Below, piece after piece: positions 14,853-51,540 of a stretch of DNA of 64,000 nt (position 1 is its first letter; each line of letters starts with the position of its first letter). Origin of the DNA: Nitrosopumilus sp. Lineage in GTDB: Archaea > Thermoproteota > Nitrososphaeria > Nitrososphaerales > Nitrosopumilaceae. The stretch lies in contig CBDBLO010000002.1 of NCBI GenBank assembly GCA_965207075.1, positions 128,001-192,000 on the forward strand. The letters run 5' to 3'. The notes under the pieces were generated by a model. It ran no database searches. It was not told the origin of the DNA and saw only the letters and a list, made by a program, of their open reading frames with translations. The translations under genes and the position numbers were made by a program.

Positions 14853-16103
14853 GGCGCTGTCCAACTTTTCACCGCCAAAGTCACGAAAAGCTTAAAGATC
14901 ATGACGCGCCCCGGTGGCAAAGCTTATTGATCATATTGTAATCGCCATGTCAATGGCTTCCAAAAGAAGCAAGAAGGACGACAAGAAAAGACAGGATGCC
15001 CATGTGCGGGCATACAAGGCGGAACGGCGAAGGCAGAAGATCAAGGAGTGCCGCGACTACAAGACGTATGAGAGAAAGCGAAGGGGCGAGGGCAGGGTGA
15101 AGAGGATCAGGATCAAGCAGCTAGCTAAACTGATCCGCGACACCCTGCCAGACGCCACAGATACGAACGTTTCCAGGATCGTGTGCGTCGTAGACATGAC
15201 ATACCGCGGCCACTCGTACCGCAGACACGTCGAGTACCTGGATGAGCATTCAGGCTCCGTAAGCATGTACGGGCTAAAAAGAGTTCCCTCGAAATCCGGC
15301 CTCCACGGCTGGGCAGGGGAGCTTGCAGGCGACATGGAGTTCGTGCTGGGGCTCCTCGCCAGACAGGCCGGGGACGACGCGCGCGGCACCCTGCTGGGCG
15401 ACTCGTCGGGGTTCTCCATAGTGAAATACGAGGACTGGGAGGACGCCAAGCGCGGGATCATATCCCGGCGCGAGTTCGACAAGCTCCACATACTGGTCGC
15501 GCCGCACGGCAGGATCGCGACGTGCGCGGTAACCGCGGGACGGCGGCACGACTCGCCGGTGTTCCGGGAGATGTACGGGCGCATACCGCAGGGAAGCGGC
15601 CGCACCATACTGGACGCCGCGTACCTGTGCAAGGCAAACTGCAGGATGATCGCGCGCAGCGGGCGCAGTCCGGTCATATGCCCAAAGGGGAACTCCCGGG
15701 CAAGGGGGCTGCATCCGATGGGCCAGATGCTGAAGTGGTACGAGAGCGACCGTGACGGGTTTGACAGGGCATACCACCAGCGGAGCCTGGTCGAGACCGC
15801 GTTCTCCGTCATCAAGGAGAGGTTTGGCGCCGTCGCGCGCGCAAAGACGTTCCGCATGAGGCAGCTGCAGCTCGCGCTAAAGTGCGTCTGCTACAATCTC
15901 GTCGCCTGATTCCGCATCCGCCCGCAGGGGGGCAGTGCACCCCCCCAGCGTACGCTGCAGACTGATGCGCCACACGCAACCAAAAACCGGAGACTTGCCG
16001 CCGGACATGCCACAATTGCGGCAGAAACGGACCCGCCCATCGCCTAAAGCCCGCTTAATTGTCCATAAAATTGGGGCGCGGCTTACAAGAGTTGGACAGC
16101 GCC
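14853..16103 (+). mobile_element. IS5-family element (IS903-like ends), 1251 bp
   Basis: Perfect 14-bp TIRs GGCGCTGTCCAACT (14853-14866) / AGTTGGACAGCGCC (16090-16103); 9-bp TSD CTGCCGCCG (14844-14852, 16104-16112). Confidence 0.93.
14914..15909 (+). CDS. IS5-family DDE transposase
   Basis: GDSSG, KLHI, HDS, LDAAY, YHQRSLVETAFSVIK; true start may be the ATG at 14947. Confidence 0.93.
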   Translation: MAKLIDHIVIAMSMASKRSKKDDKKRQDAHVRAYKAERRRQKIKECRDYKTYERKRRGEGRVKRIRIKQLAKLIRDTLPDATDTNVSRIVCVVDMTYRGHSYRRHVEYLDEHSGSVSMYGLKRVPSKSGLHGWAGELAGDMEFVLGLLARQAGDDARGTLLGDSSGFSIVKYEDWEDAKRGIISRREFDKLHILVAPHGRIATCAVTAGRRHDSPVFREMYGRIPQGSGRTILDAAYLCKANCRMIARSGRSPVICPKGNSRARGLHPMGQMLKWYESDRDGFDRAYHQRSLVETAFSVIKERFGAVARAKTFRMRQLQLALKCVCYNLVA

Positions 16104-23024: not shown

Positions 23025-24512
23025 CTAGGCGTCCGCATACATGGAGATCTCCCACGCGGTGGGGGTCTGTGCAAACGACGAGTACTCGCTGTACTTTAGG
23101 TCTGCGTACACCTCCAGAAAGTCCCTTGTAAACACGTCTACGAGGAACTCCCTGTCGCTTGCAAGCGAGTCGAGGGCGCCCTTCAGCGACGCGGGCAGCG
23201 AGCTGATGTTGTACTCGCGCTTCTTCTCGGGGGTGAGCCTGTATACGTTCTCCTCGACGGGGTCGCCCGGATCAAGCTTTCTCCGGATGCCGTCAAGCCC
23301 GGCCAGCAGCAGAGCCGCCTCCAGCAGGTAGATGTTGGCAGTCGGGTCCGGCACGCGGTACTCGATCCTCTTGCTCTTCTCCTGGTGCCGGGTGTACATG
23401 GGCACCCTCACGGCCGCGGAGCGGTTTCCCAGGCCCCAGCAGACGTTTACCGGCGCCTCAAAGCCCGGAACGAGCCGCTTGTACGAGTTCGTGGTGGGGT
23501 TTGTTATGGCGCAGAGCGCCTCTGCGTGATCCAGTATGCCCCCCACGTAGTACCTGCCGGCCTGGCTGATCTGTGCCACCAGGTCGTTCTCGTCGTACAT
23601 CTCGTTTGTCTGGCCGTTCCACAGGCTCTGGTGCGTGTGCATGGCCGACGCGTTGTCGCCGAATATCGGCTTTGGCATGAACGTCGCCACCCTGTTCTTG
23701 CGCTTTGCCTTTACCTTTACGAGGTTCTTCACCGTGACCACGTTGTCGGCCATCGGTATCATGCGCCCGTACCGGAGGTTGACCTCGCACTGGCCGGACG
23801 TCGCAACCTCGTGGTGCTCGGCCTCGACCTCTATGCCAAAGTGGCGGTACAGGTCCACGCAGACGTCCTTGCGGAACCCGTCAAGCGTGTCCTTTGGCTG
23901 CGAGGGATAGTACCCCTCGCGCACCTCGATGGCGGTGCTGACGTTTCCCTTGGACCAGGGCGACTCCTTGGACTCGATCGAGTACCCGGAGCCCGCGCCG
24001 GAGTGGGTCGCCGCGTACGGCGAGGGATACACGCTTATCGCGTCGAATATGAAGAACTCTATCTCTGGCCCCCAGCTCGTGTGCGTGAACCCGAGCTCGG
24101 ACAGCTTGCCCGCCGCCTTTTCGGCTATTCCGCGCGAGTCCCGGTTGTACCTGGCGTCCGGATGCGTGCTCCCGTCGTACAGGTCGCATATTATCCGCGC
24201 GTTCTTGCGGCCGTGGCCGCCGCCGCTGCCTGCGCCCATGTCATAGTCGTCGGGAAGTATGCGGAACGTGGACGGGTCGGGCAGCATCACCATGTCGGAC
24301 TTGTTGACCGTCTTGAACCCCACAATGGAGCTTCCGTCCAGCTTTTCAAGCCCGTTTACAAAGTTGTCCTCGTCTATCGCATAGGTGGGCATCCCCACAT
24401 TGTGCAGCTCGCCGAAGACGTCCACAAACCAAAAGTCGATAAAGGAGATGCCCTCGCTCTCGACGACATCAAGAACCCTGCCTGCCGTCATCTCCTCGCT
24501 TCCCGTGCTCAT
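23025..24512 (-). CDS. glnA: Glutamine synthetase type I (paralog 1)
   Basis: DGSSI, GPEIEFF, HHEVATSGQCE, TFMPKP, NSYKRLVPGFEAP, NRSA, RIEYRVPD. Confidence 0.96.
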   Translation of the reverse strand: MSTGSEEMTAGRVLDVVESEGISFIDFWFVDVFGELHNVGMPTYAIDEDNFVNGLEKLDGSSIVGFKTVNKSDMVMLPDPSTFRILPDDYDMGAGSGGGHGRKNARIICDLYDGSTHPDARYNRDSRGIAEKAAGKLSELGFTHTSWGPEIEFFIFDAISVYPSPYAATHSGAGSGYSIESKESPWSKGNVSTAIEVREGYYPSQPKDTLDGFRKDVCVDLYRHFGIEVEAEHHEVATSGQCEVNLRYGRMIPMADNVVTVKNLVKVKAKRKNRVATFMPKPIFGDNASAMHTHQSLWNGQTNEMYDENDLVAQISQAGRYYVGGILDHAEALCAITNPTTNSYKRLVPGFEAPVNVCWGLGNRSAAVRVPMYTRHQEKSKRIEYRVPDPTANIYLLEAALLLAGLDGIRRKLDPGDPVEENVYRLTPEKKREYNISSLPASLKGALDSLASDREFLVDVFTRDFLEVYADLKYSEYSSFAQTPTAWEISMYADA

Positions 24513-24732: not shown

Positions 24733-25908
24733 TCAGCCCTCGTCGCTAAGTATCGGCCCCATATGCCCAGATACAAGCGCGTGGTCGGCTATTACAAGCG
24801 AGACCAGCGCGTCGACTATGGGCGGGGCCCGCGGAACCGCGCACGGGTCGAACCGCCCCTTTATGGTCAGCGGGGCTTCGCTCATCGTGTCTACGTTAAC
24901 GGCAGGTTGTTCCTTCAACAGGGAGGGAACCGGCTTGAAGGCGACCCTCATCGTGATGGGCATGCCGTTTGATATCCCTCCCAGAATGCCGCCGGCGTTG
25001 TTTGTGCGCGTGATTATGCGCGGGCTGCCACCGCTGCCGTCATGGCCGTCTACGACCGCGTACGTGTCGTTGTTCTCTGAGCCGTAAAGCTTCGAGCCGG
25101 CAAAGCCGGAGCCAAACTCCACGCCCTTGACGGACGGAATCGAGAACATGGCCGAGCTTATGTCGGACTCGAGTGAGCCGAAGATAGGTTCGCCCAGTCC
25201 GACCGGCACCCCGGTCGTCACGGATTGTATGACCCCCCCGATCGAGTCGGCCCTCCTCTTTGTCTCCAATAGGGTTTCCCTCATGGCGGCGGCGGTGGTG
25301 GGATCGGGGCATCTTACGTCGTTGCCGTATATCGTGGCGTCGTCATATGTGACGGCGGACCCGCTACCACCGCGTGGCGCAGCTGCGGGCGTCTCCGCCG
25401 TGGCCGCCGGCATGGCAGTCGTGCCTATCGATTGAACGTACGAGCAGGTCTCGACACCAAGCGAGATCCTGAGAAGCTTTCGTGCAATTGCCCCCGCCAT
25501 CACATACGTGGCGGTGATCCTGCCAGAGAACCTGCCGCTGCCCCGGATATCGTTGAAGCGGCCGTACTTTACCATGGCCGTATAATCGGCGTGTCCGGGC
25601 CTGAGGTATGCCCTGAGAAGCTCATAGTGGGTCGAGGGCGTGTCCTGGTTCGCCATGAGCATTGCAATGGGCGCGCCGGTCGTGCGCCCGCGATACGTGC
25701 CAGAAATAATCTTGACGACGTCACCCTCCTTGCGCTGGGTATAGAGGATGCTCTGCCCGGGCCTGCGTCGGTCAAGCATGGGCTGGATGTCGGCCTCTGA
25801 GAGTTCTAGGCCTGCAGGGCAGCCGTCAAGCATGGCGCCGATCTGTTGCCCGTTGGCCTCGCCAAAGCTTGATAGCACGAGCCTCTGGCCCATGCTATTT
25901 CTGGACAT
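24733..25908 (-). CDS. aroC: Chorismate synthase
   Basis: RRRPGQS, RPGHAD, GRFSGRIT, SIPSVKGVEFG, NNAGGILGGISNG, KPVPS, GRFDPC. Confidence 0.95.
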   Translation of the reverse strand: MSRNSMGQRLVLSSFGEANGQQIGAMLDGCPAGLELSEADIQPMLDRRRPGQSILYTQRKEGDVVKIISGTYRGRTTGAPIAMLMANQDTPSTHYELLRAYLRPGHADYTAMVKYGRFNDIRGSGRFSGRITATYVMAGAIARKLLRISLGVETCSYVQSIGTTAMPAATAETPAAAPRGGSGSAVTYDDATIYGNDVRCPDPTTAAAMRETLLETKRRADSIGGVIQSVTTGVPVGLGEPIFGSLESDISSAMFSIPSVKGVEFGSGFAGSKLYGSENNDTYAVVDGHDGSGGSPRIITRTNNAGGILGGISNGMPITMRVAFKPVPSLLKEQPAVNVDTMSEAPLTIKGRFDPCAVPRAPPIVDALVSLVIADHALVSGHMGPILSDEG

Positions 25909-25952: not shown

Positions 25953-27379
25953 AATTCTGTTTCCTAATTGCACCAGTAGGCACCCGCCTGGCCGGGTGTT
26001 TTTTGCATGTTAGTCAGGTATTTTTCGCCTTGGGTGTTAAGTGTGCATGACACGATGTCCCACCGCACACAAATGATGGGACAAAGATGCCAGGCACAAG
26101 GCATACTTGCAGGGCATGGCTTTAAGCATGGCGCGGCGGCGCGGTCCGTCCGCAGAGGAGGGGACTGTCCGTGAGCAGGGCCGGGCGCGGCGCGGCTGCA
26201 AAGACTGACAACGAAAAGTACGTCAGGCGCGGCGCGGATCTGGTCATTGAATATGATCCGGAGTGGGAGGATGACGTAAGGCGCGCAAACGAGGGCAGGG
26301 TGGGCGCCCCGTACCAGTACGCGGACACGCTCATCATGCTGGCCGCCGGCATCAGGGTCGCGCAGGGGGTCCGGTACAGGCAGCTCCAGGGGATGGTCGG
26401 CAAGATGATAGGCAGGTCCAACGCGCCCGTGTTCAGCCAGCTGTGCAAGCGGATCAACGGGCTTGACACGGACATCCGCCGGGGCCCGGACGGGATGGTG
26501 ACGGTGTCGGACAGGAAGGGGCCGCGGGTGCTGGCGCTCGACGCGAGCGGGCTCAAGCAGCACAACAGGGGCGAATGGATGAGGGCCAAGTGGAAGGTGA
26601 GGCGGGGCTTTGTAAAGATGCACGTGCTGGTCGACACGGAGACCATGAAGGTACTCGCGCTGGAGGTCACCGACGACTCCGTGGGAGACCCGACCATGTT
26701 CGAGTCGCTGCTCGGACAGGTCGTGGACGCGGACGGCGCCAATGCGGAGGACGGCACGCGGCACGCGGAGCCGCCCGCCGCGCCCCGCTCCGACGGCGGC
26801 GGTCCGAGGTACGAAAACCTGCTCGCGTCCGGCGTCTCCCCGCTCGCGTCGTTCTTCCCGGGCGCCCCCCGGGACCGGACCGCGCCCGACCTCCTGCTCG
26901 GCGATGCCGCGTACGGCTCAAGAAAAAACATATCCGCGTGCGCGCGGGCCGGGGTGACACCGGGCATTGCGCACACCATCAACGTGACGGCGCGCGGCAA
27001 GGGATCCGGAGACGCGTGGGGCATGTCGGTAAGGGACCAGATGGGCGGAAGCCCCGACGCGACGCGCCTGGACCTGATGGGCAGGGAGCAGAAGAGGGAG
27101 AACCAGACGTACTGGAAGGCCCGCATAGGCTACGGCTTTCGCTGGCTCGTGGAGAGCGTGTTTTCGGCGTTCAAGCGCCTGTTCGGAGAGCACCTGTTGG
27201 CCCTCAAGTGGGAAAACATCGTGCAGGAGGTAAAACTCAAGGTGATCCAGTACAACAAGTGGAGGGACGAGTCGATAGTGCGGGAGGCGGGAGGCGGGAC
27301 GTCCTGATGGCATGACGCCCATGTCGCCGTCCGATAGGGACTCGGCAGGCATCCAGATGGCGAATTAGGAAACAAAGTT
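25953..27379 (+). mobile_element. IS5-family element, 1427 bp
   Basis: 17-bp imperfect TIRs AATTCTGTTTCCTAATT (25953-25969) / AATTAGGAAACAAAGTT (27363-27379); 8-bp TSD TCGCGCCG (25945-25952, 27380-27387). Confidence 0.9.
26171..27307 (+). CDS. IS5-family (IS903-like) DDE transposase
   Basis: LDASGLK...GEW...KMH.LVD, GDAAYG, GYGFRWLVESVFSAFKRLFG. Confidence 0.93.
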   Translation: MSRAGRGAAAKTDNEKYVRRGADLVIEYDPEWEDDVRRANEGRVGAPYQYADTLIMLAAGIRVAQGVRYRQLQGMVGKMIGRSNAPVFSQLCKRINGLDTDIRRGPDGMVTVSDRKGPRVLALDASGLKQHNRGEWMRAKWKVRRGFVKMHVLVDTETMKVLALEVTDDSVGDPTMFESLLGQVVDADGANAEDGTRHAEPPAAPRSDGGGPRYENLLASGVSPLASFFPGAPRDRTAPDLLLGDAAYGSRKNISACARAGVTPGIAHTINVTARGKGSGDAWGMSVRDQMGGSPDATRLDLMGREQKRENQTYWKARIGYGFRWLVESVFSAFKRLFGEHLLALKWENIVQEVKLKVIQYNKWRDESIVREAGGGTS

Positions 27380-27535
27380 TCGCGCCGTAGTTCCGGCCCT
27401 TCCTCCATCCAGTCGGGGTTGATTTGTCCTGATCGCTTTTGCGGCCTTCTTGTCCGGGAACGCCGAGCGGGGTTTGGCAGTCATCTACGTCAAGTCACCG
27501 GTCTAGGTTGTGATCAGTCTTCATACACTAATTGG

Positions 27536-28945
27536 TCAGCTTGCCTGCTTTGGGGGGTCTTGGCCCGAGCGCGTACTGCTATGCCCCGCCTGATGCTTTG
27601 CCGCCTTTATCGCGTCAAGCTCGTCCTCAAAGAAGAACCTAGAGCCCTCCACCGGCCTGAGGTCGTCAAGCCATATGGCGTCCTCGTCATATTTTGCAAA
27701 GAACGGGGTGTGCGCCCAGTCGGGGTTCCTTCCCTGCAGGAACCGGAGCACGAGCATCTTTTGGCCGCCTATCGTGGCGACGCCGGAAACCTGCACCTTG
27801 CCGGGCGTGGCCGACATGCTGGGGCCCCTGACCGTCCTTGCCAGCCCGCTGACTGACGAGTATGCCCTGCTGAATATCTCGTACGCCCTGACAAGCGGCA
27901 CGCCAAAGTAGTGCTGCGCGCCCGTGTCCCTGACCACGAACATGTAGTACGGAATGCATCCCATGCTGACCTGCTTGGTCCACATGCGCCCCCACATCTG
28001 CGCGTCGTCGTTTATGTGCGCAAGCAGAGGCGACTGCGTCCTTATCTGCGCGCCCGTGGCCCTGACCTTCTTGATGGCGGCCGCCACCGCGTCAGTCGAG
28101 AGCTCGTTGAGGTGGTTAAAGTGTGACATGAACGCAAGGTGCAGCCCGCTCTCGGTTATGCGGCGGAACACGTCGAGCATCTCCTCCGCGTCGGGATCCG
28201 TCAGGAACTTGTACGGCCAGTACGCGAGCGCCTTTGTGCCTATCCTGACGGTCTTGAGGTGCGGGAGCCTCGACTCTATTATGGCGTCCGCATACTTTGC
28301 AAATATGCGCGCCTTCATTATCATCGGGTCGCCGCCGGTAAACAAGATGTCGGTAATCTCGGGATGCTCCGACACGTACTGGACCAGCTGCTCGCCCTCC
28401 TTCATTGCAAACTTCATCTCGTCCATCCCGACGAACTGCGGCCACCTGAAGCAAAAGCTGCAGTACGCGTGGCAGGTCTGGCTCTGGCTTGGAAAGAAGA
28501 GGCAGGTCTCCTTGTACTTGTGCTGCATGCCGTACAGCTTTGTCCCGTCCCGGAGCGACGGGACGTTGAGCTCCATCTGTCCGGCCGGGTGCGGGTTGAG
28601 CTGCAGGCGTATCTCGTTTGCGACCCGCGCAATCTCTTCCTTGCCGGCTCCGCTGTTGAGCGTCGACTCCATCTTTGCATAGTGGTCCGGCTTTAGCATG
28701 CCCCTCTGCGGAAACGTCAGGACGAACATGGGGTCGTTTGGTATGTCGTCCCAGTCGATGAGCTGCTCCACCACGTAGTTGTTGGCCTTGAACGGCAGCA
28801 CGTTTCCGACCACCTCCATCTCAGACACCATCTGTTCCGGGACGGACTCGAGCTGCGGGAGGCTCCGAAAGTTGGCCAGCGTGTACGACTTGAGCGAGGG
28901 GGACGCGGATCCGTCGTCCCACACGGTCTGCTGAGCGGATGCCAT
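27536..28945 (-). CDS. KamA-family radical SAM/PLP 2,3-aminomutase (substrate probably not lysine)
   Basis: CHAYCSFCFR (CX3CX2C), HKY, LFTGGDP, HFNH, PYYMF, PGK (PLP Lys); ATG 28945 downstream of CTTTAACAT box. Confidence 0.9.
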   Translation of the reverse strand: MASAQQTVWDDGSASPSLKSYTLANFRSLPQLESVPEQMVSEMEVVGNVLPFKANNYVVEQLIDWDDIPNDPMFVLTFPQRGMLKPDHYAKMESTLNSGAGKEEIARVANEIRLQLNPHPAGQMELNVPSLRDGTKLYGMQHKYKETCLFFPSQSQTCHAYCSFCFRWPQFVGMDEMKFAMKEGEQLVQYVSEHPEITDILFTGGDPMIMKARIFAKYADAIIESRLPHLKTVRIGTKALAYWPYKFLTDPDAEEMLDVFRRITESGLHLAFMSHFNHLNELSTDAVAAAIKKVRATGAQIRTQSPLLAHINDDAQMWGRMWTKQVSMGCIPYYMFVVRDTGAQHYFGVPLVRAYEIFSRAYSSVSGLARTVRGPSMSATPGKVQVSGVATIGGQKMLVLRFLQGRNPDWAHTPFFAKYDEDAIWLDDLRPVEGSRFFFEDELDAIKAAKHQAGHSSTRSGQDPPKQAS

Positions 28946-29129
28946 TGTAGTTGGTACGCGCGTGCCATATGTTAAAGCTTTAGTTCGCGCGGCGCCCCCG
29001 ACGCTGGTCAGCCATACGGACGGGACGGACGCCGCCGCAGACAAACGATATTAACGCGGTTTGCAGGACTCTGTTGTTGACAGCGTGGATAGCAATGCAG
29101 CGGCAGGGCGGCAGGACCGGTGACGCGTA

Positions 29130-30881
29130 GTGGCGGGGGAGGAAGAGCTGTCGCAGCTCACTGCGGGCGAGCTGCAGGCCGTCCCGCAGCTGCTGGCGTC
29201 ATCAGAGGCCCTGCAGGTCGCGTTTGTCATACTGGCAGTAGGCATCATAAGCATCGTGATAGTATACAGAAAGTTCTCCTCCTGGGTGCGCTCGCAGAGG
29301 TTCTATTACGAGAGGCCGCACATCTCAAGGTTCCTGCGCAGCGTCATGCTCCCGTTCCTTGCCATCGCCCTGATCACCGCCGTCAACGTGTACGTGCAGG
29401 CCGGGATACTCACGGAGGAGGGAGGGGCCGCTGCAGAATCCGCAGCGGCCGGCGCCCTCACCGCAGGCGACGCGTTTGCAAAGATCCTCAACACGTTTAA
29501 CATACTCGTGATCGGGTACGCGGTCTCCCACCTGATTCCAATCATACTGACAAAGCACGAGCGCTACCTGCAGGAGAGGGGCGACTTTGAGCAGTGGTTT
29601 GAGATGCGCGGGTTCGCCGACGACGAGGACGGCCTCTTCCACAGGCTGTACAAGTGGATTCCCCCAAAGGACGCCCCGGAGGACATGGGCCAGGACGAGT
29701 ACGAGGCCATGCTGAAAACCGAGGAGGGCGTAAAAAGGCTGGAGCAGTTCCGGACTGCGCAGGGAAACCCGATAGGCGGGTACGAGAAGAGGGTCAAGAG
29801 CCCGTTTGAGGACTGGAAGAGGTCCGAGCGCGCAAAGTACTCCAAGTACTACGGCGGCTGCATAAGCGGCAACAACGAGACGGGGCTCAAGCTGAAGCCC
29901 GGGGCAAAGCCCGAGGAGATATACCCGATCGACACGTGGAGGGAGGAGAAGCGCCTCAACGGGTACGAGAAGGTGGTCCCCAGCGCGCGCCCCCCGGGAT
30001 ACGCAGAGAAGAAGAGGCAGGGGCTTCCAAAGTCCATAAAGCAGCTCCTTCCAATAGGGCTCTTTGCGGCCACCATACTGGGCGTGCTTGGGTGGTGGGG
30101 CGTCGACCTGTTTGTGGTGGCCACCGCGACCGGCGGATTCTCCATAGGCCTCGGGCTGGCGCTGCAGGAGACCATGAAGAACTACTTTGCATACCTGAGG
30201 ATCAGAAAGGACAAGATCTTCGTGGAGGGCGACAGGATACAGCTGGAGTCCGGGTACAACGGCTACGTGCACAAGATAACGCCGCTTGTCACGTATGTCA
30301 TCGACGCGCTGTACGAGTCGGTGGCCATAATCCCCACAAGCGACTTGGTCACCGCGCAGATCATAAACTACACAAAGGAGAACAAGCTGGTGCCCGCCGT
30401 CGTAAACGTGGGGGTGTCATACCTGAACAACCCAAAGCAGGTCGCGGCCATACTGGTAAAGGTCGGAAAGCGCGCCATGACTGAGATCGTAGACTCAAAA
30501 GGCAGGCACCTCGTAAGGCAGGCGCGCTGCCCGTACCTAAACGAGAACAGGCCGAGCTGCGGGTGTGACAGGGACCTGCACGTAGAGCTGACGCAGCCCG
30601 TGGTCAGGTTTGACAACTTTAACGACTCGTCGCTTGACTTTTCGATGTGGGTCTACGTCCGAAACTATGGCTCACAGTTCAAGACGAAGACCGACATGCG
30701 GATCATGATATATGAAGAGTTTAAAAAGTATGACATAAGGATCCCGTGGCCCATCAGGACCATATACCAGGGAGACGAAAAGCGGGAGGGCGCCGAGATC
30801 GGGTCTCTCGACAAGGAGAGGCAGGGCGTCATCGACGAGCACGGCATAGGTGACCTGCGGCGCGAAGGGGACGAAGAATAG
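29130..30881 (+). CDS. MscS-family mechanosensitive channel with large internal insertion
   Basis: GLGLALQETMKNYFA, GDRIQL, IIPTS, IINYT, VGVSY, FNDSSLDF, IRIPWP. Confidence 0.92.
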   Translation: MAGEEELSQLTAGELQAVPQLLASSEALQVAFVILAVGIISIVIVYRKFSSWVRSQRFYYERPHISRFLRSVMLPFLAIALITAVNVYVQAGILTEEGGAAAESAAAGALTAGDAFAKILNTFNILVIGYAVSHLIPIILTKHERYLQERGDFEQWFEMRGFADDEDGLFHRLYKWIPPKDAPEDMGQDEYEAMLKTEEGVKRLEQFRTAQGNPIGGYEKRVKSPFEDWKRSERAKYSKYYGGCISGNNETGLKLKPGAKPEEIYPIDTWREEKRLNGYEKVVPSARPPGYAEKKRQGLPKSIKQLLPIGLFAATILGVLGWWGVDLFVVATATGGFSIGLGLALQETMKNYFAYLRIRKDKIFVEGDRIQLESGYNGYVHKITPLVTYVIDALYESVAIIPTSDLVTAQIINYTKENKLVPAVVNVGVSYLNNPKQVAAILVKVGKRAMTEIVDSKGRHLVRQARCPYLNENRPSCGCDRDLHVELTQPVVRFDNFNDSSLDFSMWVYVRNYGSQFKTKTDMRIMIYEEFKKYDIRIPWPIRTIYQGDEKREGAEIGSLDKERQGVIDEHGIGDLRREGDEE

Positions 30882-31111
30882 GCGGCGGCGCCAACGGGTT
30901 GTACGCAAGACGGAAGAGACGGGGCGCCCGGCATTTTTGGCGCCGCAGTAACCCGCGCCTTCATCTGCGCCCGCCCGCGCGCAATCAATTCTCAAAAACG
31001 CCGTAAATTGTCCCGGCATGTGTTCATTATTCACGCCTGCACGAGTTTTTTCTTCAACTACGCAGAACGTCTACTGAATGGTTTTTTAACAAGTCACGGC
31101 CGACAAGGTTG

Positions 31112-33301
31112 ATGAAAGTAGCTATCGTGTATAACAAGAAGCGCATAGACGACCAAGACGTGATCAACGTCTTCGGCATGACCACAAAGGAGCACTACTC
31201 ATACAAGACGGTCGAGAAGGTCGCAAAGGCGCTCGAAAAGGGGGGGCACTCCGTGAAGATCATAGAGGGCGGAATGAACTTTATAGACGAGATGAAGGAC
31301 TTTATGCCGCGCGTCGTGGCGGGCGAGAGGCCGGGCATGGTATTCAACATGGCGTACGGCATACAGGGACGCAACCGATACACACACGTTCCTGCCATGC
31401 TCGAGATGCTCGGGATACCGTACGTGGGATCGGGGCCCGAGGCCCACGCGGTAGTGCAGGACAAGGTAATGACAAAACTGGTGCTGCAGAAGAACAACAT
31501 ACCCACGCCCGGATTCTGGGTCTTCACCAGCCCGGACGACGAGTTCGAGGACCTCGCGTTCCCGGTCATCGTAAAGCCGAAGATGGAGTCCACGTCCATG
31601 GGGATGGAGGTCGTCCGCGACAGGGACAGCCTGCGCAGGGCGGTAAGGGGCCAGATGGAGAAGTACTCGCAGGAGATACTGGTGGAGCAGTTCATACCCG
31701 GAAGGGAGTTCGCGGTAGGCCTACTGGGAAACGGCACGCACGTCGAGGTACTGCCGATAGTCGAGATGGATCTCGGGGGCGATCCGGACAGGATCCAGAC
31801 CATAACCGAAAAGAAGTCGGACCCGCTTGACAAGGTGTGCCCAGCCGAACTCACCGAGGAACAGGCGGCCCACATAAAGAAGATCTGCCTTGCGGCGTTC
31901 GGGAAGCTCGGGCTGAACGACTTTACAAGGGTGGATCTGCGCATGTCCCAGGACGGGAAGGTCTACATACTGGAGCTCAACTCGATGGCAAGCCTCGGGC
32001 AGACGGGCTCGTACTATACGGCGGCCAAGGCGGCCGGCTACACCTACGACACGCTGATCAACAAGATTTTTGAGGTGGCCTCTATGCGGTACTTTGGGGA
32101 CATACACCCCCACCCCGAACCGGGCAAAAAGTCGTCCGCCCAGTCGCTGCGCTCTATGATCCGGAGCTACCTCCGGAGCCACTACACCACAAACGAGAAG
32201 CTGCTGGAGCAGCTGGTAACCATAAACTCGAGCGTCTACAATCTGGAGGACGTGAACAAGCTCGGCCGCATGATCGCCAAGAGGCTTGAGCACCTCGGGT
32301 TCACGACGCGCACGCACCAGATGTTCGACGTGGGGAACATGATATACTGCGCCAACCACGACGGAGCGGAGAACGACGTCCTGCTGCTGAGCCACCTTGA
32401 CACTTGGTACACGAACCAAGACTTTGGCGCGTTCCACAAGGTGGGCAGCAAGCTGTACGGATCGGGCATAGCGGAGAGCAAGGGGGGGCTCGTCGTGATG
32501 CTCTCCGCGCTCCAGGCCCTGAGGTTCGCGCGCAGGCTGAAGAGGGTCAGGTGCGGCATACTGCTGATCAGCGACGACTCCGTAGGCGGAAGATTCAGCG
32601 AGAAGCTGGTCCGCGATACGGCGGAATCCTCAAGGTACATACTGGACCTGAAATGGGGCATGGAGGACGGATCGGTTGCGACCTCCTGTTCGGGCATCAC
32701 CAACTACCACATAGACATGCTTCATGTACGGAGCCCGGGAGAGGCCATAAAGGACGTCATACCGGAGATGTGCAGGAAGGTCGTGGACTGGGAGAAGGCA
32801 GCCTTGGCCCACGGCGACGCAAGGGTCAGCATATCGGAATTCAAGGCGCGCACGTCGTTAGGCTCATCACCGGACTACGGGAGCCTCACCCTCACCTCCA
32901 GATACGTCACGAAGCAGCAGGGAAGGGATATCGATGCGGATCTGCGCAAGATCGCCAAGAAGAAGGGCAAGGTCAAGCTCGATATCCACATAATACAGCA
33001 GACCCAGCAGGATCCGGTGGTGGTAACCGAGGGCGGGCGCGGCTTCTACAAGATAGTCGACGGGCTGGCAAGAGAGGCCGAGATCAAGATCTCCCCAGCC
33101 CACAGGTATGCACCGTCCAGCCTGGGGGACGTGTCTGACGACGGCCACAAACCCATGCTGGGCTCGATGGGGCCGATAGGGATAGACTGCAGGACGCCAA
33201 ACGAGCACGTCATAAGGGACAGCGTGATAGACAGGGCCCTGCTGCTGGCGCTGACCATGAACGAGATCTCAACGGGCAAGGGAAGGACGGATTGGACATA
33301 G
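31112..33301 (+). CDS. D-Ala-D-Ala-ligase-like ATP-grasp enzyme fused to an M20-peptidase-like domain
   Basis: VFNMAYG, GIPYVGS, QDK, VKPKMESTSMG, EQFIPGREF, RVDLR, LELN; C-terminal SHLDT, GIAESKGG, GPIG...PNEH. Confidence 0.92.
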   Translation: MKVAIVYNKKRIDDQDVINVFGMTTKEHYSYKTVEKVAKALEKGGHSVKIIEGGMNFIDEMKDFMPRVVAGERPGMVFNMAYGIQGRNRYTHVPAMLEMLGIPYVGSGPEAHAVVQDKVMTKLVLQKNNIPTPGFWVFTSPDDEFEDLAFPVIVKPKMESTSMGMEVVRDRDSLRRAVRGQMEKYSQEILVEQFIPGREFAVGLLGNGTHVEVLPIVEMDLGGDPDRIQTITEKKSDPLDKVCPAELTEEQAAHIKKICLAAFGKLGLNDFTRVDLRMSQDGKVYILELNSMASLGQTGSYYTAAKAAGYTYDTLINKIFEVASMRYFGDIHPHPEPGKKSSAQSLRSMIRSYLRSHYTTNEKLLEQLVTINSSVYNLEDVNKLGRMIAKRLEHLGFTTRTHQMFDVGNMIYCANHDGAENDVLLLSHLDTWYTNQDFGAFHKVGSKLYGSGIAESKGGLVVMLSALQALRFARRLKRVRCGILLISDDSVGGRFSEKLVRDTAESSRYILDLKWGMEDGSVATSCSGITNYHIDMLHVRSPGEAIKDVIPEMCRKVVDWEKAALAHGDARVSISEFKARTSLGSSPDYGSLTLTSRYVTKQQGRDIDADLRKIAKKKGKVKLDIHIIQQTQQDPVVVTEGGRGFYKIVDGLAREAEIKISPAHRYAPSSLGDVSDDGHKPMLGSMGPIGIDCRTPNEHVIRDSVIDRALLLALTMNEISTGKGRTDWT

Positions 33302-35001
33302 AGCAGATAGAGTCGTCGTTTCGTCCCTCACGCAGCGGGAAGGCGGCGTACGCCGCAAACGGCATGGTCGCGTCCGCGTTTCCCGACGCGACCGGGGCCG
33401 GGGTCGAGATGCTCAGGAAGGGCGGAAACGCCGTCGACGCGGCGTGCGCAACGGCGTTCGCGCTGGGCGTCTGCGAGCCGCAGGCATCCGGCATAGGCGG
33501 GCAGTCTATGTGCATAATGCGCGTCAACGGAAAGAACATAGCAGTCGACGGCTCAAGCCGGGCCCCCTCGCTGGCACACTCGTCCATATACGCGAGGAGA
33601 AAGCGCCGGCGGCTCCTCGGCTACAGGGCGACCACGGTCCCGAGCACGGTAGCCGTCCTAGGCAAGATGCATGAGCGCTACGGCCGGCTCGAGTGGCAGA
33701 AGATCCTGGCCCCCGCCATACGGATCGCCAAGAGGGGATACCGCATCACCATGCTGCAACACAGTATCCAGAAGGAGAAGCTTGATGAGTTTCTAAGCGT
33801 AGACTCGGGGTCGGGCGCGCGATACTTTCTGAAGGACGGCCAAGTGCCGTACGAGGTGGGGGACAGATTCGTCCAGGACGATTTGGCGCACACCTTGGAG
33901 GCCATCTCGGAGAGCGGCTACCTGAGCTTCTACCACGGCAGTATCGCAAAACAGATAGACGCCGACATGAGGGCAAACGGCGGGCTGATCCGCGAGGAGG
34001 ACCTGGCGTTTGTCCCCGAACCCATCGAGCGCATTCCAATCATGCGAAAGTACCGGGGCGTCTCCGTGGTGACCATGCCCCCGCCCGCAGCAGGCAGCAC
34101 CCTGCTGCTCACGTTGATGATGCTCAACCACCTTCCGTCCAAGTTCCTGCACGGCGACAGGCCCAGCTCCTACCACTTTATGGCCGAGGCGTTCAGAAAG
34201 GCATTCCTGCACAGGGTGCTGCGGCCGTTCAACCCGCACACCTACGACCAGATGCAGAGCAGGCACCACCTGCAACGCACGTTTGCAAGGCAGATGGCGG
34301 ACTCCATACACAACGCCATGGACGCCACGCTGCCAATGATAGATCCAATATTTGGCGGGGAGGGGGACACCACCCACTTCTCCGTCATGGACAGCGGTCC
34401 GCTCAGGTACCACCCCGGGCTCGTTGAAAAGGAGGGGGAAACCACCCATCTCTCCGTCATGGACAGCGAGGGCAACGCCGTGGGCATCACGCAGTCCATC
34501 GAACTGGCATACGGCTCAAAGGCGGCGGCCGAGGGGCTGGGGTTCCTATACAACGACTACATATCGGCGTTCGAGTTCTCGACCCCGACCAACCCGTTCT
34601 ACATCAGGCCGAACGGGATACCTTGGACTTCAGTCTCCCCCGCGCTGATCTTTTATGACGGGCAGCTCTGGATGGTGGTCGGAAGCCCGGGCAGCCAGAG
34701 GATATTCTCCACCGTTACCCAGTTTCTCACCGGCATGATCGACGGAGACATGCCGATGGACAGGGCGATGGACAGGCCCAGGTTCCACTGCACCATCGGG
34801 GGCACGATCAGCGTGGAAGAGGGCGGGTTTGACGCGGCAGTCAGGCGGTACCTTGAGAAGATGGGCTACAAGCTCACCGACAGGGAGAGGTACTCGTTCT
34901 ATCACGGGGCCATCCACGCGGCCATGAGGCTCCAGACGCGGGCCGGCTTCCAAGGCGTAGCGGAGGTCAGGCGCGACGGCACCGCGGGTGGCATGAATTG
35001 A
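33292..35001 (+). CDS. ggt: Gamma-glutamyltransferase-family Ntn hydrolase (no signal peptide)
   Basis: GGNAVDAA, EPQASGIGG, VP, PPP, TTHLSVMDSEGNAV, GSPG, PRFH; TTG start overlaps upstream stop. Confidence 0.92.
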   Translation: MDIEQIESSFRPSRSGKAAYAANGMVASAFPDATGAGVEMLRKGGNAVDAACATAFALGVCEPQASGIGGQSMCIMRVNGKNIAVDGSSRAPSLAHSSIYARRKRRRLLGYRATTVPSTVAVLGKMHERYGRLEWQKILAPAIRIAKRGYRITMLQHSIQKEKLDEFLSVDSGSGARYFLKDGQVPYEVGDRFVQDDLAHTLEAISESGYLSFYHGSIAKQIDADMRANGGLIREEDLAFVPEPIERIPIMRKYRGVSVVTMPPPAAGSTLLLTLMMLNHLPSKFLHGDRPSSYHFMAEAFRKAFLHRVLRPFNPHTYDQMQSRHHLQRTFARQMADSIHNAMDATLPMIDPIFGGEGDTTHFSVMDSGPLRYHPGLVEKEGETTHLSVMDSEGNAVGITQSIELAYGSKAAAEGLGFLYNDYISAFEFSTPTNPFYIRPNGIPWTSVSPALIFYDGQLWMVVGSPGSQRIFSTVTQFLTGMIDGDMPMDRAMDRPRFHCTIGGTISVEEGGFDAAVRRYLEKMGYKLTDRERYSFYHGAIHAAMRLQTRAGFQGVAEVRRDGTAGGMN

Positions 35002-35807
35002 CCGGACTTCCCGTCCTGATCTCCATCCCGCACGGCGGCACGGAGGTGCCAGAGGAGCTTGCCGGGCGCGTCCGCATTACAGAATCCGCGCAGTTTGACG
35101 ACTCGGATGCGTTCACGGCCGAGATCTACGACATCGGGGAATCGGCCCTCCACGTTATCAAGGCCGAGATTGCAAGGGCGTACGTCGACCTGAACAGGTC
35201 AAGGGAGCAGCTGCCGCCAGACGTCCCGGACGGGCTGATCAAGAGCGTCACCTGCTACAACGAACCCGTCTACATGAGCGGTATGGAGCCGGGCCCGCAG
35301 CTTACAGAGCGGCTCATCAAAAGGTACTATGATCCGTACTATGGCGCGATAGAGAGGGCGTGCGCGGATCCGCAGAACGGGCTGCGGCTGTGCCTTGACT
35401 GCCACTCCATGGCGCCCACCGCGCCCCCGGTCAGCGGCAATAGCAGCAGTGAGGGCGGCAGTGGCAATACGGCCCGACCGCTGTTCTGCCTCTCAAACCG
35501 CAACGGCAAGACGTGTCCCGATGATCAGATGGAGGTGCTTGCACGCTGCATGTCAGAGTCCTTTGAAATACCCAGGGACCGCATACTCCTGAACCACCCG
35601 TTTCAGGGCGGACACATAACAGAATGGTTTGGGGCAAGGCACGATCCCGCCATCCCATGGGTGCAGATTGAGATGAACCGTGCTCTGTATCTGGATGAGC
35701 AGTGGTTTGACCGCGCCTCCATGAAAATGACCGACAGGAAGCGGCTTGCCGAGCTCAATCGCATGTTCAGGGACGCGCTGGCCGGGTTCTTTGACTGCCG
35801 CACGTGA
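34998..35807 (+). CDS. N-formylglutamate amidohydrolase (HutG-like)
   Basis: SIPHGG, ARAYVDLNR, DCHSM, NHPFQGG, QIEMNRALY; 4-nt overlap with ggt stop. Confidence 0.92.
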   Translation: MTGLPVLISIPHGGTEVPEELAGRVRITESAQFDDSDAFTAEIYDIGESALHVIKAEIARAYVDLNRSREQLPPDVPDGLIKSVTCYNEPVYMSGMEPGPQLTERLIKRYYDPYYGAIERACADPQNGLRLCLDCHSMAPTAPPVSGNSSSEGGSGNTARPLFCLSNRNGKTCPDDQMEVLARCMSESFEIPRDRILLNHPFQGGHITEWFGARHDPAIPWVQIEMNRALYLDEQWFDRASMKMTDRKRLAELNRMFRDALAGFFDCRT

Positions 35808-36193
35808 CGGCCTGCGGGCGCCAAGCCAGCCGCGGGTGGATCTTTCCCGGACTCTCGCGCCGGTGCCGGAAACGTAGCCCGGAAAGCTGTATGCCGTGCG
35901 GCGTCCGGGCCCCGGCACGAGGATCCGTCTTTGGGGCACGGTATTGGTGGGCTGTTGCAGACGGTCCCTTGCGCAGATGCTTTCTGCCGCATCCCTCAGA
36001 CGTGAGGCCTACAAGCCGACTCCTGCCAGGCCCTAGAATCCGGACGGATTGCCGTTCGCCAAAGGGAGACAAGATGCCGGCTTCTCGTCCGTATCAGGAG
36101 CGTTCGGTGCGGCTCATGCCAGACTGTGACCAACCGCATTTTCCAGAGCTGTTACTCTCAAGATTTAAGATGCGGTGTGGGATACGGCCGGAC

Positions 36194-37111
36194 ATGGGAC
36201 AGAAGAGGGGGGCGTGCGTGTTATCGGGCGGCTCCTCGGACGGCCTTGCCAGGAGCATATCGGAAAAGATCGGCGCCAAGCTGATCACCACGGAGGTGCG
36301 CGTGTTTTCCGACGGGGAGAGCAAGATGAGGCTCGGGGGCAGAACCTCCGGATACGACAGGGCGGTCATAGTGCAGTCGCTCCACCCGCCCGTGGACACC
36401 AACCTGTTCAGGGCGCTCTGCCTCATATCAAGGATAAGCGAGGACACCAAGGATGTAACCGCGGTGATCCCGTACGTCGGGTATGCAAGGCAGGATGCCG
36501 AGTTCCTTCCGGGTGAGATCATATCCGCAAAGGTGCTCGGCAGGATGCTCAGAAGCGCCGGCGCAGCCAGGATCGTGGTAGTCGACATACACAGTGAGAG
36601 GGGGCTTGCGCTGCTCGGCACGCGGAACACGACCAACGTGTCCGCCGTACCCGCACTGGCGCGGCACTTTGACGGCGTCAGGCTGGAGAGGCCCATTGCG
36701 GTGTCCCCCGACAAGGGGGGCGCAAGGAGGGCGGAACGGTTCGCGTCGGAGATGGGGTGCGACCTGCTGGTGCTCGAAAAGTCAAGGGACAGGAGGACGG
36801 GGGCCGTGAGCATAAAGACCAAGAAGGCGGGGGCCGTGGGGGGCAGGGACGCCATCATAATTGACGACATGATAAGCACCGGAGGAAGCGTTGTCAAGGC
36901 CGCGGAGTTCCTAAAGAAGCAGGGCTGCGGGCGCATATTTGCCGCATGCACGCACGCCCTGCTCGCGGGCGGCGCCAAATCCAGGATAAGGAGGGCGGGG
37001 ATCAGCAAGATAGTCTGCGCCAACACCATGCCTGCCGGCAAGGGAGTCGCATCAGTCGACGTATCAGACGAGATTGCCAGGGTCCTGAAGAGGAGACGAC
37101 AGCGGCGGTAA
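36194..37111 (+). CDS. prs: Ribose-phosphate pyrophosphokinase
   Basis: FSDGE, PYVGYARQD, VDIHS, SPDKGG, IIDDMISTGGS; ATG 36194 after GATTTAAG. Confidence 0.95.
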   Translation: MGQKRGACVLSGGSSDGLARSISEKIGAKLITTEVRVFSDGESKMRLGGRTSGYDRAVIVQSLHPPVDTNLFRALCLISRISEDTKDVTAVIPYVGYARQDAEFLPGEIISAKVLGRMLRSAGAARIVVVDIHSERGLALLGTRNTTNVSAVPALARHFDGVRLERPIAVSPDKGGARRAERFASEMGCDLLVLEKSRDRRTGAVSIKTKKAGAVGGRDAIIIDDMISTGGSVVKAAEFLKKQGCGRIFAACTHALLAGGAKSRIRRAGISKIVCANTMPAGKGVASVDVSDEIARVLKRRRQRR

Positions 37112-47960: not shown

Positions 47961-49421
47961 ATGCCATACAGAGTCAGTCACGGTAAGGCGATACAGGTTC
48001 AGTTTTCACCCGACGAGGTCTTCTCAAGGATACAGCACGAGAACATCCAGTTTATCGACCTGCAGTTTACAGGACTGACCGGGCACTTCCACCACACCAC
48101 CATATCGGCCGCCACCTTCACGCCGGAGCAGATGAGGGACGGCCTGCCAAAGCTCGACGGCTCGTCGATAATAGGGTTCACCAGCATAGACGACTCGGAC
48201 CTGCTGCTAAAGCCGGACCCCAACACGTTTGCCATAATCCCGTGGATGACGGAGAACAAGACGGCGCGCCTGCTGTGCGACGTATACTGGGGGGGCGACC
48301 GCGGCAGGCTCTCGCGTGACCCCAGGGGGATCGCGCAAAAGGCCGAGGAGTACATCAAGTCCCAGGGCTTTGACTACTCAACGTGGGGCCCCGAGGTAGA
48401 GTTCTTTGTCTTTGACAAGGTGCACTGGGACGTGCTCACGCCATACAAGGGCCAGTCATACGCCATAGAGTCCAAGGAGGCCCCGTGGAGCCAGGAGGGT
48501 GACGGGTATCCGATGGGGCTCCAAGAGGGGTACTATCCGAGCACCCCGTCTGACACGCTTACGCCATACCGGAACGAGTGCGTAAACATACTGCAGAACA
48601 ACTTCGGGATACTGTGCGACAACCACCACCACGAGGTCGCGACGGCGGGCCAGTGCGAGATCGACATCAGGTACGACCACCTGACGAACGCGGCCGACGC
48701 CGCGCAGTCATACAAGTACGTAATCAGGAACATAGCGCAAAAGTACGGCAAGGTGGCCACCATGATGCCCAAGCCCATTGCGATGGACTCGGGCAGCGGA
48801 ATGCACGTCAACGTCAGCCTCTGGAAGAAGGACCGGAACATGTTCTACGACTCGGGCAGCGAGGACGAGCTGAGCCAGACGGCGCGCTACTTTTGCGGCG
48901 GCGTCATAGAGCACGCAAAGGCGCTCTCCGCCATCTGCAACCCCACCACGAACTCGTACCACAGGCTCGTGCCCGGCTACGAGGCGCCCGCATATATCGC
49001 GTGGAGTTCTGGAAACCGTTCGGCAATAGTCAGGGTCCCGAGGCACCTGACGGGCAAGCAGTACGCCCACCTAAAGCGCCTGGAGTTCAGGGCGCCCGAT
49101 CCGTCCTCAAACCCGTACCTGGTGTTCGCCGCCATAACGGCGGCCGGCATGGACGGCGTCAAGAAGAAGATGGAGCCTGGCGACCAGATACACGACGACA
49201 TATTCAAGATGACGCGCTCAGACAGGGCAAAGCGCGGAATCGATGTGTTGCCAAAGAGCCTGGGCGACGCGCTCAACGAGCTTGAGAGCGACAGAAAGTT
49301 CCTGCTGTCCATATACACGGACGACGTGATAGACAAGGTGATAGAGCTGGAGAGGAGGGACCAGCGCGAGATATCGATCAGGCCGCACCCGCACGAGTTT
49401 TACCTGTACTTTGACGTCTAG
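47961..49421 (+). CDS. glnA: Glutamine synthetase type I (paralog 2)
   Basis: DGSSI, RDPR, GPEVEFF, HHEVATAGQCE, MPKP, GSGMH, NSYHRLVPGYEAP, RLEFRAPD; ATG 47961. Confidence 0.96.
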   Translation: MPYRVSHGKAIQVQFSPDEVFSRIQHENIQFIDLQFTGLTGHFHHTTISAATFTPEQMRDGLPKLDGSSIIGFTSIDDSDLLLKPDPNTFAIIPWMTENKTARLLCDVYWGGDRGRLSRDPRGIAQKAEEYIKSQGFDYSTWGPEVEFFVFDKVHWDVLTPYKGQSYAIESKEAPWSQEGDGYPMGLQEGYYPSTPSDTLTPYRNECVNILQNNFGILCDNHHHEVATAGQCEIDIRYDHLTNAADAAQSYKYVIRNIAQKYGKVATMMPKPIAMDSGSGMHVNVSLWKKDRNMFYDSGSEDELSQTARYFCGGVIEHAKALSAICNPTTNSYHRLVPGYEAPAYIAWSSGNRSAIVRVPRHLTGKQYAHLKRLEFRAPDPSSNPYLVFAAITAAGMDGVKKKMEPGDQIHDDIFKMTRSDRAKRGIDVLPKSLGDALNELESDRKFLLSIYTDDVIDKVIELERRDQREISIRPHPHEFYLYFDV

Positions 49422-51490: not shown

Positions 51491-51540
51491 GCCTGCCGAC
51501 TTGGAAATCCACTTTTTATATCTTGAGATCGGCGGCGGCG

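Follow-up and report, generated by a model that had tools for sequence, protein, structure and literature searches.

A candidate beta-glutamate osmolyte unit and a putative amide cassette, probably independent of each other, lie side by side in a Nitrosopumilus genome

In this study, we examined five neighbouring genes in a stretch of 64,000 nucleotides from Nitrosopumilus sp. (contig CBDBLO010000002.1, positions 128,001 to 192,000; hereafter the window). They encode a KamA-like radical-SAM/pyridoxal-phosphate (PLP) aminomutase, an MscS-like mechanosensitive channel transcribed divergently from it, and, in three overlapping genes, an ATP-grasp ligase fused to an M20-like domain, a gamma-glutamyltransferase (GGT)-like protein and an amidohydrolase of the N-formylglutamate amidohydrolase (FGase) family. 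An earlier note on this DNA had taken the five for a single pathway. We found instead that the interval probably consists of two independent gene units that adjoin only in this lineage: a candidate osmolyte unit (Unit A), made up of the aminomutase and the channel with the glutamine synthetase paralog GlnA-2 as partner, and a putative amide cassette (Unit B), made up of the three overlapping genes. Our main result is therefore a correction, in that adjacency in one genome rich in insertion sequences (IS) mimicked a five-gene pathway that comparative genomics splits; the substrates and products assigned to either unit are predictions.

The five genes and their setting

The window belongs to an assembly of 2.23 Mb in two contigs (95.4% complete, G+C about 61%), and its host is a sponge-type ammonia-oxidising archaeon of the family Nitrosopumilaceae. 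All five open reading frames (ORFs) announced in the earlier note are present with the domains it named (Table 1), and the overlaps that it described amount to 10 nt between the fusion and the GGT-like gene (33292-33301) and 4 nt between the GGT-like and FGase-like genes (34998-35001). The arrangement is not an assembly artefact, because a single contig of run X1, which is possibly the source sample, covers 27500-36300 with no differences, and contigs of run X5, from a separate study, tile the same stretch, again with no differences. The reported lack of ablB, histidine-utilisation and peptidoglycan genes extends to the whole assembly, which at 95.4% completeness holds no AblB (TIGR03827), no HutU (urocanase) and no Mur-ligase domain.

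Contigs of RNA run X20, a sponge metatranscriptome (contigs 90-97% alike), cover the aminomutase (27552-28952) and short bits of MscS and the fusion, with no cover over the GGT-like and FGase-like genes; these contigs carry no expression levels, and an RNA library can contain DNA. A scan for promoters and terminators of the bacterial type performed no better on the window than on shuffled sequence and is not applicable to archaea.

Table 1. Features of the locus, in window coordinates
Feature	Position	Strand	Basis and remarks
GlnA-2, second type I glutamine synthetase	23025..24512	-	TIGR00653, 498.5 bits (cut-off 429.15)
aroC	24733-25908		between GlnA-2 and aminomutase
DDE transposase ORF	26171..27307	+	PF01609, E 5.8e-18; between GlnA-2 and aminomutase
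KamA-like radical-SAM/PLP aminomutase, candidate glutamate 2,3-aminomutase (beta-glutamate synthase)	ORF 27536-29044; from Met34 27536..28945	-	TIGR00238, motifs
MscS-like mechanosensitive channel, 583 aa	29130..30881	+	PF00924, PF21082
TATA-like box TTTTTTAA, putative own promoter of the cassette	31082..31089	+	23-30 nt upstream of the fusion ATG; read from the sequence
Ddl-like ATP-grasp ligase fused to M20-like domain without canonical metal site	31112..33301 (alternative start 31109)	+	PF07478, Peptidase_M20
Leaderless GGT-like N-terminal nucleophile (Ntn) hydrolase, nucleophile Thr384	33292..35001	+	PF01019, 385.9 bits
In-frame 72-nt (24 aa) insertion duplicating the nucleophile motif	34369..34440 (repeat region 34359-34468)	+	38-nt direct repeat
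FGase-family (HutG-like) amidohydrolase	34998..35807	+	PF05013, 157.9 bits
Phosphoribosyl pyrophosphate (PRPP) synthase (ribose-phosphate diphosphokinase), ancestral MscS neighbour, in neither unit	36194..37111 (ORF 35804-37111)	+	TIGR01251, 259 bits

Neighbourhoods in other genomes

Our survey covered 151 genomes of the class, the window's own included, with 80 other genomes in the same family; the sample from outside the family in which the aminomutase was sought numbered 71 genomes. One of the 80 (G132) is unpublished and was negative for every counted feature, and no claim depends on it alone. We compared 20 cassette loci (L008-L027) and as many aminomutase loci, each about 20 kb long, together with 7 cassette loci from a species-genome collection, and tested the content of the 27 cassette and 20 aminomutase loci by tblastn.

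Neither the aminomutase nor the PRPP synthase turned up in any of the 27 other cassette loci, one of which has an MscS paralog (52% identity); conversely, none of the 20 other aminomutase loci holds any cassette gene. Where complete genomes carry both units, the nearest pair is 47 kb apart (G148) and the others lie from 150 kb to more than 1 Mb apart, as in G092 with units at 1,262,109 and 889,167. The cassette is missing from 41 of the 67 family genomes that bear the aminomutase, and in the closest sampled relative of the window (L001, fusion 89% identical) the 10 kb ahead of the cassette contain no aminomutase and no MscS.

Each unit is conserved in itself. An MscS ortholog was found in 55 of the 80 family genomes, all of which also carry the aminomutase, and the two genes lie directly head-to-head in 49 of these 55, with 1.1-3.7 kb between them in five and 26 kb in one; the link between aminomutase and divergent channel to which the earlier note had pointed is thus strongly conserved (in the window the gap is 85-184 nt). 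The aminomutase itself is present in 67 of the 80 and in none of the 71 genomes sampled outside the family. For the cassette, the full-length fusion occurs in 26 of the 80 besides the window's own genome, the GGT-like gene in the same 26 and the FGase-like gene in 25, the contig of the 26th stopping at that point; in all 25, the FGase-like gene directly follows the GGT-like gene. The three overlapping genes had also been proposed to form a unit, and this is borne out.

A single five-gene pathway would have the aminomutase make beta-glutamate, the ligase condense it into an amide or dipeptide, the GGT-like and FGase-like enzymes turn it over and MscS release it. It could draw on the adjacency of the genes in the window and on a related population with the same arrangement, in which an X6 contig bridges the MscS/fusion junction (30878-31218); the arrangement is therefore real. 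Further, the pocket of the GGT-like protein, short of its anchors for alpha-amino and alpha-carboxylate groups, would fit an isomeric beta-glutamyl group of equal chain length. One observation that weighs against two independent units is co-occurrence: the aminomutase accompanies the cassette in all 26 genomes that bear the latter, and the 13 family genomes lacking the aminomutase are also without the cassette. This leaves room for a functional tie, although close kinship among the genomes confounds the count and makes it weak either way. Set against the single pathway are the lack of linkage in both sets of loci, an outcome that the earlier note had itself named as refuting its model, the many aminomutase genomes without a cassette, the TATA-like box that the cassette appears to have of its own, and the clusters of fusion look-alikes in the Atlas, which are mostly from Bacillota and Pseudomonadota. 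The neighbourhood comparison does not sustain the five-gene proposal, and we regard it as quite unlikely.

With two independent units as the preferred reading, the present arrangement can be set beside the usual order in other genomes. There, one strand carries a small secreted protein, GlnA-2 and the aminomutase, and the opposite strand carries MscS, PRPP synthase, a methyltransferase and RNase Z; we take GlnA-2, aminomutase and, divergently, MscS, PRPP synthase and RNase Z as the ancestral order. Of the 16 other loci with MscS, 13 have it next to the PRPP-synthase gene and one more has a single small ORF in between; the window carries the 4.7-kb cassette exactly at this junction. The start of the PRPP synthase is probably the ATG at 36194, the TIGR01251 match beginning at residue 139 of the long ORF; a TATA-like TTTAAG lies 25-30 nt upstream of this ATG, and RNase Z follows the gene. 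On the other side, aroC and a DDE transposase stand between GlnA-2 and the aminomutase, a position at which neither is seen in any of the 20 other aminomutase loci. We propose that Unit B moved in between MscS and PRPP synthase, and that aroC and the transposase moved in between GlnA-2 and the aminomutase. Three transposase or integrase ORFs within 64 kb (14914-15909, 26171-27307 and 51382-52668; two DDE transposases and one rve integrase) fit a rearrangement-prone genome. The adjacency of cassette and MscS is confined to this lineage. An X6 contig that joins 30821 to 36155, as the ancestral MscS/PRPP-synthase junction without the cassette would, is a hint only, with 27 letters on its shorter side, below the limit of reliability. 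The flanks of the inserted cassette show neither direct nor inverted repeats, and neither tRNA-like nor IS ends.

Unit A: aminomutase, channel and glutamine synthetase

The aminomutase is the only KamA-family gene in the assembly, and an alignment of 21 orthologs places its real start at Met34. It scores 128.4 bits against the KamA-family model TIGR00238 (128.9 in the genome search), under the membership cut-off of 199.2, and matches the Radical_SAM model weakly. Its only solved relative is the lysine 2,3-aminomutase (LAM) of Clostridium subterminale (2A5H; E 2.6e-19, residues 159-401), with which it shares the CxxxCxxC motif and the arginine that follows, the equivalent of the carboxylate-binding LAM Arg134 (CHAYCSFCFR aligned with CSMYCRHCTR). 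The three cysteines and this arginine are kept in 21 of 21 orthologs, two of which have Thr for Ser in the motif, and the segments VVRDTGAQHYF and MSATPGK are invariant in the same set. The HMMER alignment ends at LAM residue 322, so that the Asp330/Lys337 region, with the PLP-binding lysine of LAM (Lys337), lies beyond it; the invariant PGK motif follows at the expected distance, and its lysine is found in 43 of 49 aligned clade sequences, the query included. The window protein differs from LAM in some 120 extra N-terminal residues and at the position of Asp293, which is Arg372 here and invariant among the 21 orthologs, so that the acidic residue of AblA is absent. Asp293 presumably binds the side-chain amine of lysine in LAM, and we take a glutamate enzyme to have a basic residue in its place.

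Beta-glutamic acid is the most abundant identified metabolite of Nitrosopumilus maritimus SCM1, at 730 mM (PMC8269262). Together with the arginine at the Asp293 position, this makes beta-glutamate synthesis the best reading of the aminomutase, and on the strength of sequence and context we lean towards Unit A as a unit for beta-glutamate synthesis and release. The earlier suggestion of a beta-glutamate product remains plausible on the same two grounds. The aminomutase would move the amino group of L-glutamate to C3, yielding beta-glutamate, and MscS would vent solutes upon hypo-osmotic shock. The same conversion of L-glutamate to beta-glutamate has been proposed for clostridial Eam and for IdnL4 of the incednine cluster, both of the same radical-SAM/PLP family, and the eam gene has been tied to salt response via Na+ riboswitches (PMC9337991).

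Several points weigh against beta-glutamate as the product. The residue roles invoked for Asp293 and its basic counterpart are those we presume. Among the curated models, that of Eam (TIGR04368) gives the lowest score, 77.4 bits against a cut-off of 650, so that the aminomutase does not count as an Eam ortholog; the 48 full-length sequences that represent its clade all score under every curated NCBIfam cut-off, TIGR04368 included. IdnL4, the other proposed glutamate 2,3-aminomutase, has genetic support only, no in vitro activity ever having been shown (PMC11284099), and for methanogens, nuclear magnetic resonance work spoke against beta-glutamate being made by an aminomutase (PMC1224877).

These methanogen data would also suit an aminomutase that serves another substrate, making beta-lysine, beta-arginine or another beta-amino acid or carrying out an EpmB-like protein modification, with beta-glutamate arising by a different route. 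Its best curated matches are generic KamA, EpmB and AblA, not the glutamate enzyme, and its clade is large and heterogeneous (325 representatives at E < 1e-30), with arginine at the Asp293 position in only 28 of 49 aligned sequences, the query included. Nevertheless, the assembly is without AblB, and the exchange of the presumed acidic binder of the lysine amine for a basic residue argues against a basic substrate. Further, 730 mM beta-glutamate requires a dedicated enzyme, for which no other candidate is known, and the conserved pairing with MscS is ill-suited to a modifier of a translation factor. We therefore consider another substrate unlikely.

The likely beta-glutamate unit resembles the AblA/AblB system, in which the osmolyte, a beta-amino acid, is the product of a KamA-family aminomutase and has its charge neutralised by a second enzyme (PMC1224877). 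It differs from that system in its score against the AblA/KamA lysine 2,3-aminomutase model TIGR03820 (99.9 bits against a cut-off of 525.4), in the lack of AblB, in the arginine at the Asp293 position and in its conserved partners, which are MscS and a glutamine synthetase paralog rather than a GNAT protein. The channel exceeds the cut-offs of both of its MscS domain models (PF00924, 26.9 bits against 20.2; PF21082, 29.1 against 21).

The genome has two GlnA genes. Orthologs of GlnA-2, counted at an identity of at least 56%, were found in 52 of the 80 family genomes; all 52 have the aminomutase, and the 13 family genomes without the aminomutase have no GlnA-2 ortholog. In 38 of the 52, GlnA-2 is the gene immediately downstream of the aminomutase, and in three more it lies within 2.3 kb. 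The ATP-grasp ligase had been put forward as the amide-forming partner of the aminomutase; the neighbour that is conserved is this glutamine synthetase paralog. Its glutamate-binding loop, DNASAMHTHQS, is invariant in 16 of 16 sequences, with NASAMH where canonical enzymes have NGSGMH. A glutamine synthetase of Methanohalophilus turns beta-glutamate into beta-glutamine (PMC1224877). GlnA-2 might amidate part of the pool to beta-glutamine or might merely supply nitrogen, and a beta-glutamine step is less certain than the beta-glutamate reading of Unit A. The other gene, GlnA-1, at about 48015-49415 (+), is of the type that almost every genome of the class carries; its frame is open for some 230 codons further upstream, and its loop reads DSGSGMHVNVS against the canonical DNGSGMHVHQS.

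Ammonia-oxidising archaea are among the most abundant cells of the ocean, and one cultured species is reported at about 0.7 M beta-glutamate (PMC8269262), a paper whose available text does not contain the word aminomutase. In the literature on aminomutases in Nitrosopumilus and ammonia-oxidising archaea, we found no paper that names a beta-glutamate gene, and the available part of a 2026 survey of osmoprotection genes in these archaea makes no mention of radical SAM, glutamyl, CorA or beta-glutamate (PMC12949516). One testable candidate gene, with its channel and glutamine synthetase partner, would open marine beta-glutamate production to genetics and biochemistry.

In other genomes, the neighbours of the aminomutase include an amino-acid permease, universal stress proteins (Usp) and Na+/H+ exchangers. 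In 13 of the 20 aminomutase loci (among them L028-L036 and L041-L043), GlnA-2 is followed by a conserved protein of about 220 aa that has a signal peptide and a membrane anchor at its C-terminus and matches no Pfam family; the clustered part of the window (17001-40000) holds no copy. Among the representative proteins, P0134 (882 aa) combines a KamA-like half, 45% identical to the window aminomutase, with an N-monooxygenase-like half that scores 259 bits against TIGR04439, under the cut-off of that model.

Unit B: a putative amide cassette

The first half of the fusion matches Dala_Dala_lig_C (PF07478) with 113 bits at residues 144-321 and PF13535 with 50.3 bits, and its best structural and hidden Markov model matches (residues 20-325) are DdlB (2DLN) and VanA. 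The equivalents of DdlB Glu15, Arg255, Asp257, Glu270 and Asn272 are kept, the last four being the catalytic Arg, Asp, Glu and Asn of the Mg-ATP/acyl-phosphate site expected in an ATP-grasp amide ligase, and the RVD and ELN motifs are conserved among orthologs of the fusion, one of 28 reading RAD. Membership of the Ddl family itself is not supported, all Ddl models scoring under their cut-offs (NF002378, 165.4 against 243; TIGR01205, 158.9 against 245.65). The D-Ala site is altered, with TEKKSD at the omega-loop Lys215-Tyr216 and GQTGSY in the Ser281 region, and the fusion further departs from Ddl in carrying an M20-like domain and in belonging to an organism without Mur ligases.

This second half matches Peptidase_M20 with 27.4 bits (residues 425-716), just over the cut-off of 24.6, and carboxypeptidase G2 (CPG2; 1CG2) at the level of the fold (residues 364-716). 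The equivalents of CPG2 His112 and Asp114 are kept. At the other ligand positions, Asp141 is replaced by Glu, Glu175-Glu176 by Asp-Asp, Glu200 by Lys and His385 by Arg, so that two metal ligands of the M20 metallopeptidases have become Lys and Arg and three others are swapped. The His112, Glu, Asp-Asp and Lys positions are invariant in all 28 orthologs, and the His385 position is Arg in 27 and Lys in one. Such conservation indicates a site that has been remodelled under selection and has not simply decayed, and the earlier view of a pseudo-M20 half is supported in that the canonical di-metal site is missing. An ATP-grasp dipeptide ligase and an M42 peptidase reportedly serve the osmoprotectant system of N-acetylglutaminylglutamine amide (NAGGN), a glutamine-derived compatible solute of Pseudomonas and Sinorhizobium. 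That system likewise pairs an ATP-grasp amide ligase with a protein of the MH-clan peptidase fold; the present ligase belongs to another ATP-grasp branch, there is no amidotransferase, and the peptidase fold is fused and metal-less.

The GGT-like protein scores 352.8 bits against TIGR00066, just under the equivalog cut-off of 357.85. It has in common with GGT of E. coli (2E0W) and Bacillus (4Y23) the Ntn-hydrolase fold, the Thr nucleophile, the TTH motif and the GSPG oxyanion region: the small subunits of GGT structures in the PDB align from Thr384, TTH is kept in 29 of 29 family members, and GSPG is intact. We take Arg114, Gln430 and Asp433 of the E. coli enzyme to be the anchors for the alpha-amino and alpha-carboxylate groups of the gamma-glutamyl moiety. 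These positions are Ser, Tyr and Ala in the window protein (motifs DGSSR and YNNYMSAF), and the core pattern without the canonical anchors recurs in all 29 members, with variant letters in a few, so that the active site has indeed changed, as the earlier note had it. Judged by eye, the N-terminus contains no signal peptide, and the protein further differs from GGT in being cytoplasmic and in a 24-aa repeat of its nucleophile motif. In the FGase-like protein, the motifs PHGG, DLNR, HSM and IEMNR align with 2Q7S. It shares with HutG a strong match to the Pfam FGase family (PF05013), and it scores 79.9 bits against the HutG model TIGR02017, far under the cut-off of 278.75; given this score and the lack of a urocanase in the genome, the gene is not part of histidine use.

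The company kept by the cassette elsewhere is one of ion transport. Nine of the 20 loci L008-L027, and none of the 7 other loci, show the order fusion, CorA-like protein, Ion_trans channel, GGT-like, FGase-like, and a CNNM gene directly follows the fusion in 4 of those 9. Other genes near the cassette encode CNNM/CorC, Na+/H+-CBS, Usp, Na+:dicarboxylate symporter, GNAT and amidohydrolase proteins. The CorA-like protein (548 aa) and the Ion_trans channel (267 aa) lie on the same strand (L014-L018, L020-L022, L024), and the window cassette is without them. The TATA-like box ahead of the window cassette is at the position expected of an archaeal TATA box.

In Unit B, the ligase would form a small amide through an acyl-phosphate, and the GGT-like and FGase-like hydrolases would cleave amide bonds in it. 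Judging from sequence and neighbours, Unit B is probably a make-and-break cassette for a small, glutamate-related amide that is tied to cation or osmotic balance. GGT, M20 dipeptidases and ATP-grasp ligases together form the gamma-glutamyl cycle in other organisms, and the cassette might accordingly salvage or catabolise ordinary gamma-glutamyl compounds, or add and trim glutamate tails in the manner of RimK, with no tie to compatible solutes; the closeness of the M20 half to CPG2, a glutamate carboxypeptidase, would agree with this. We nevertheless hold this to be very unlikely in view of the non-canonical M20 metal site (Glu200 to Lys; His385 to Arg, or Lys in 1 of 28), the loss of the Arg114, Gln430 and Asp433 anchors from all 29 GGT-like sequences, the lack of a signal peptide by eye in the N-terminus, and the company of the cassette genes in other genomes, where genes for ion channels and transporters are interspersed among them and thiol or ribosomal genes are not. 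We also considered a glutathione-type cycle and a carrier system of the LysW kind, and discarded both because of the changed active sites and the genomic neighbourhood.

That the cassette acts on beta-glutamate wherever it is found, so that its juxtaposition with Unit A reflects a real biochemical link, strikes us as decidedly improbable. The ligase would then convert the anionic solute into a beta-glutamyl amide or dipeptide of zwitterionic or neutral character, the GGT-like protein would be a beta-glutamyl amidase, and the FGase-like protein would complete the breakdown. If this were true, marine nitrifiers would gain a tunable anion-to-zwitterion osmolyte switch tied to K+/Mg2+ transport. 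The remodelled yet conserved active sites recommend the small-amide cassette that we favour as a subject for substrate discovery; the literature on Nitrosopumilus and glutamyltransferases yielded no described function for a ligase/amidase cassette.

The repeat in the window's GGT-like gene places a copy reading TTHFSVMDS upstream of the functional TTHLSVMDS, which follows 24 residues later. At the DNA level, it is a 38-nt direct repeat of 92% identity at a spacing of 72 nt, where Tandem Repeats Finder reported nothing. The 28 other GGT-like sequences aligned lack the insertion; a contig of run X6 (33179-34888, 60 differences) carries it gap-free, and so does run X5. Second copies of the GGT-like gene occur in some genomes: one (G107:C1:922471-924855) is broken by a TGA stop, with an FGase-like gene adjoining, and the other (L004:3022-4647) is intact and 49% identical.

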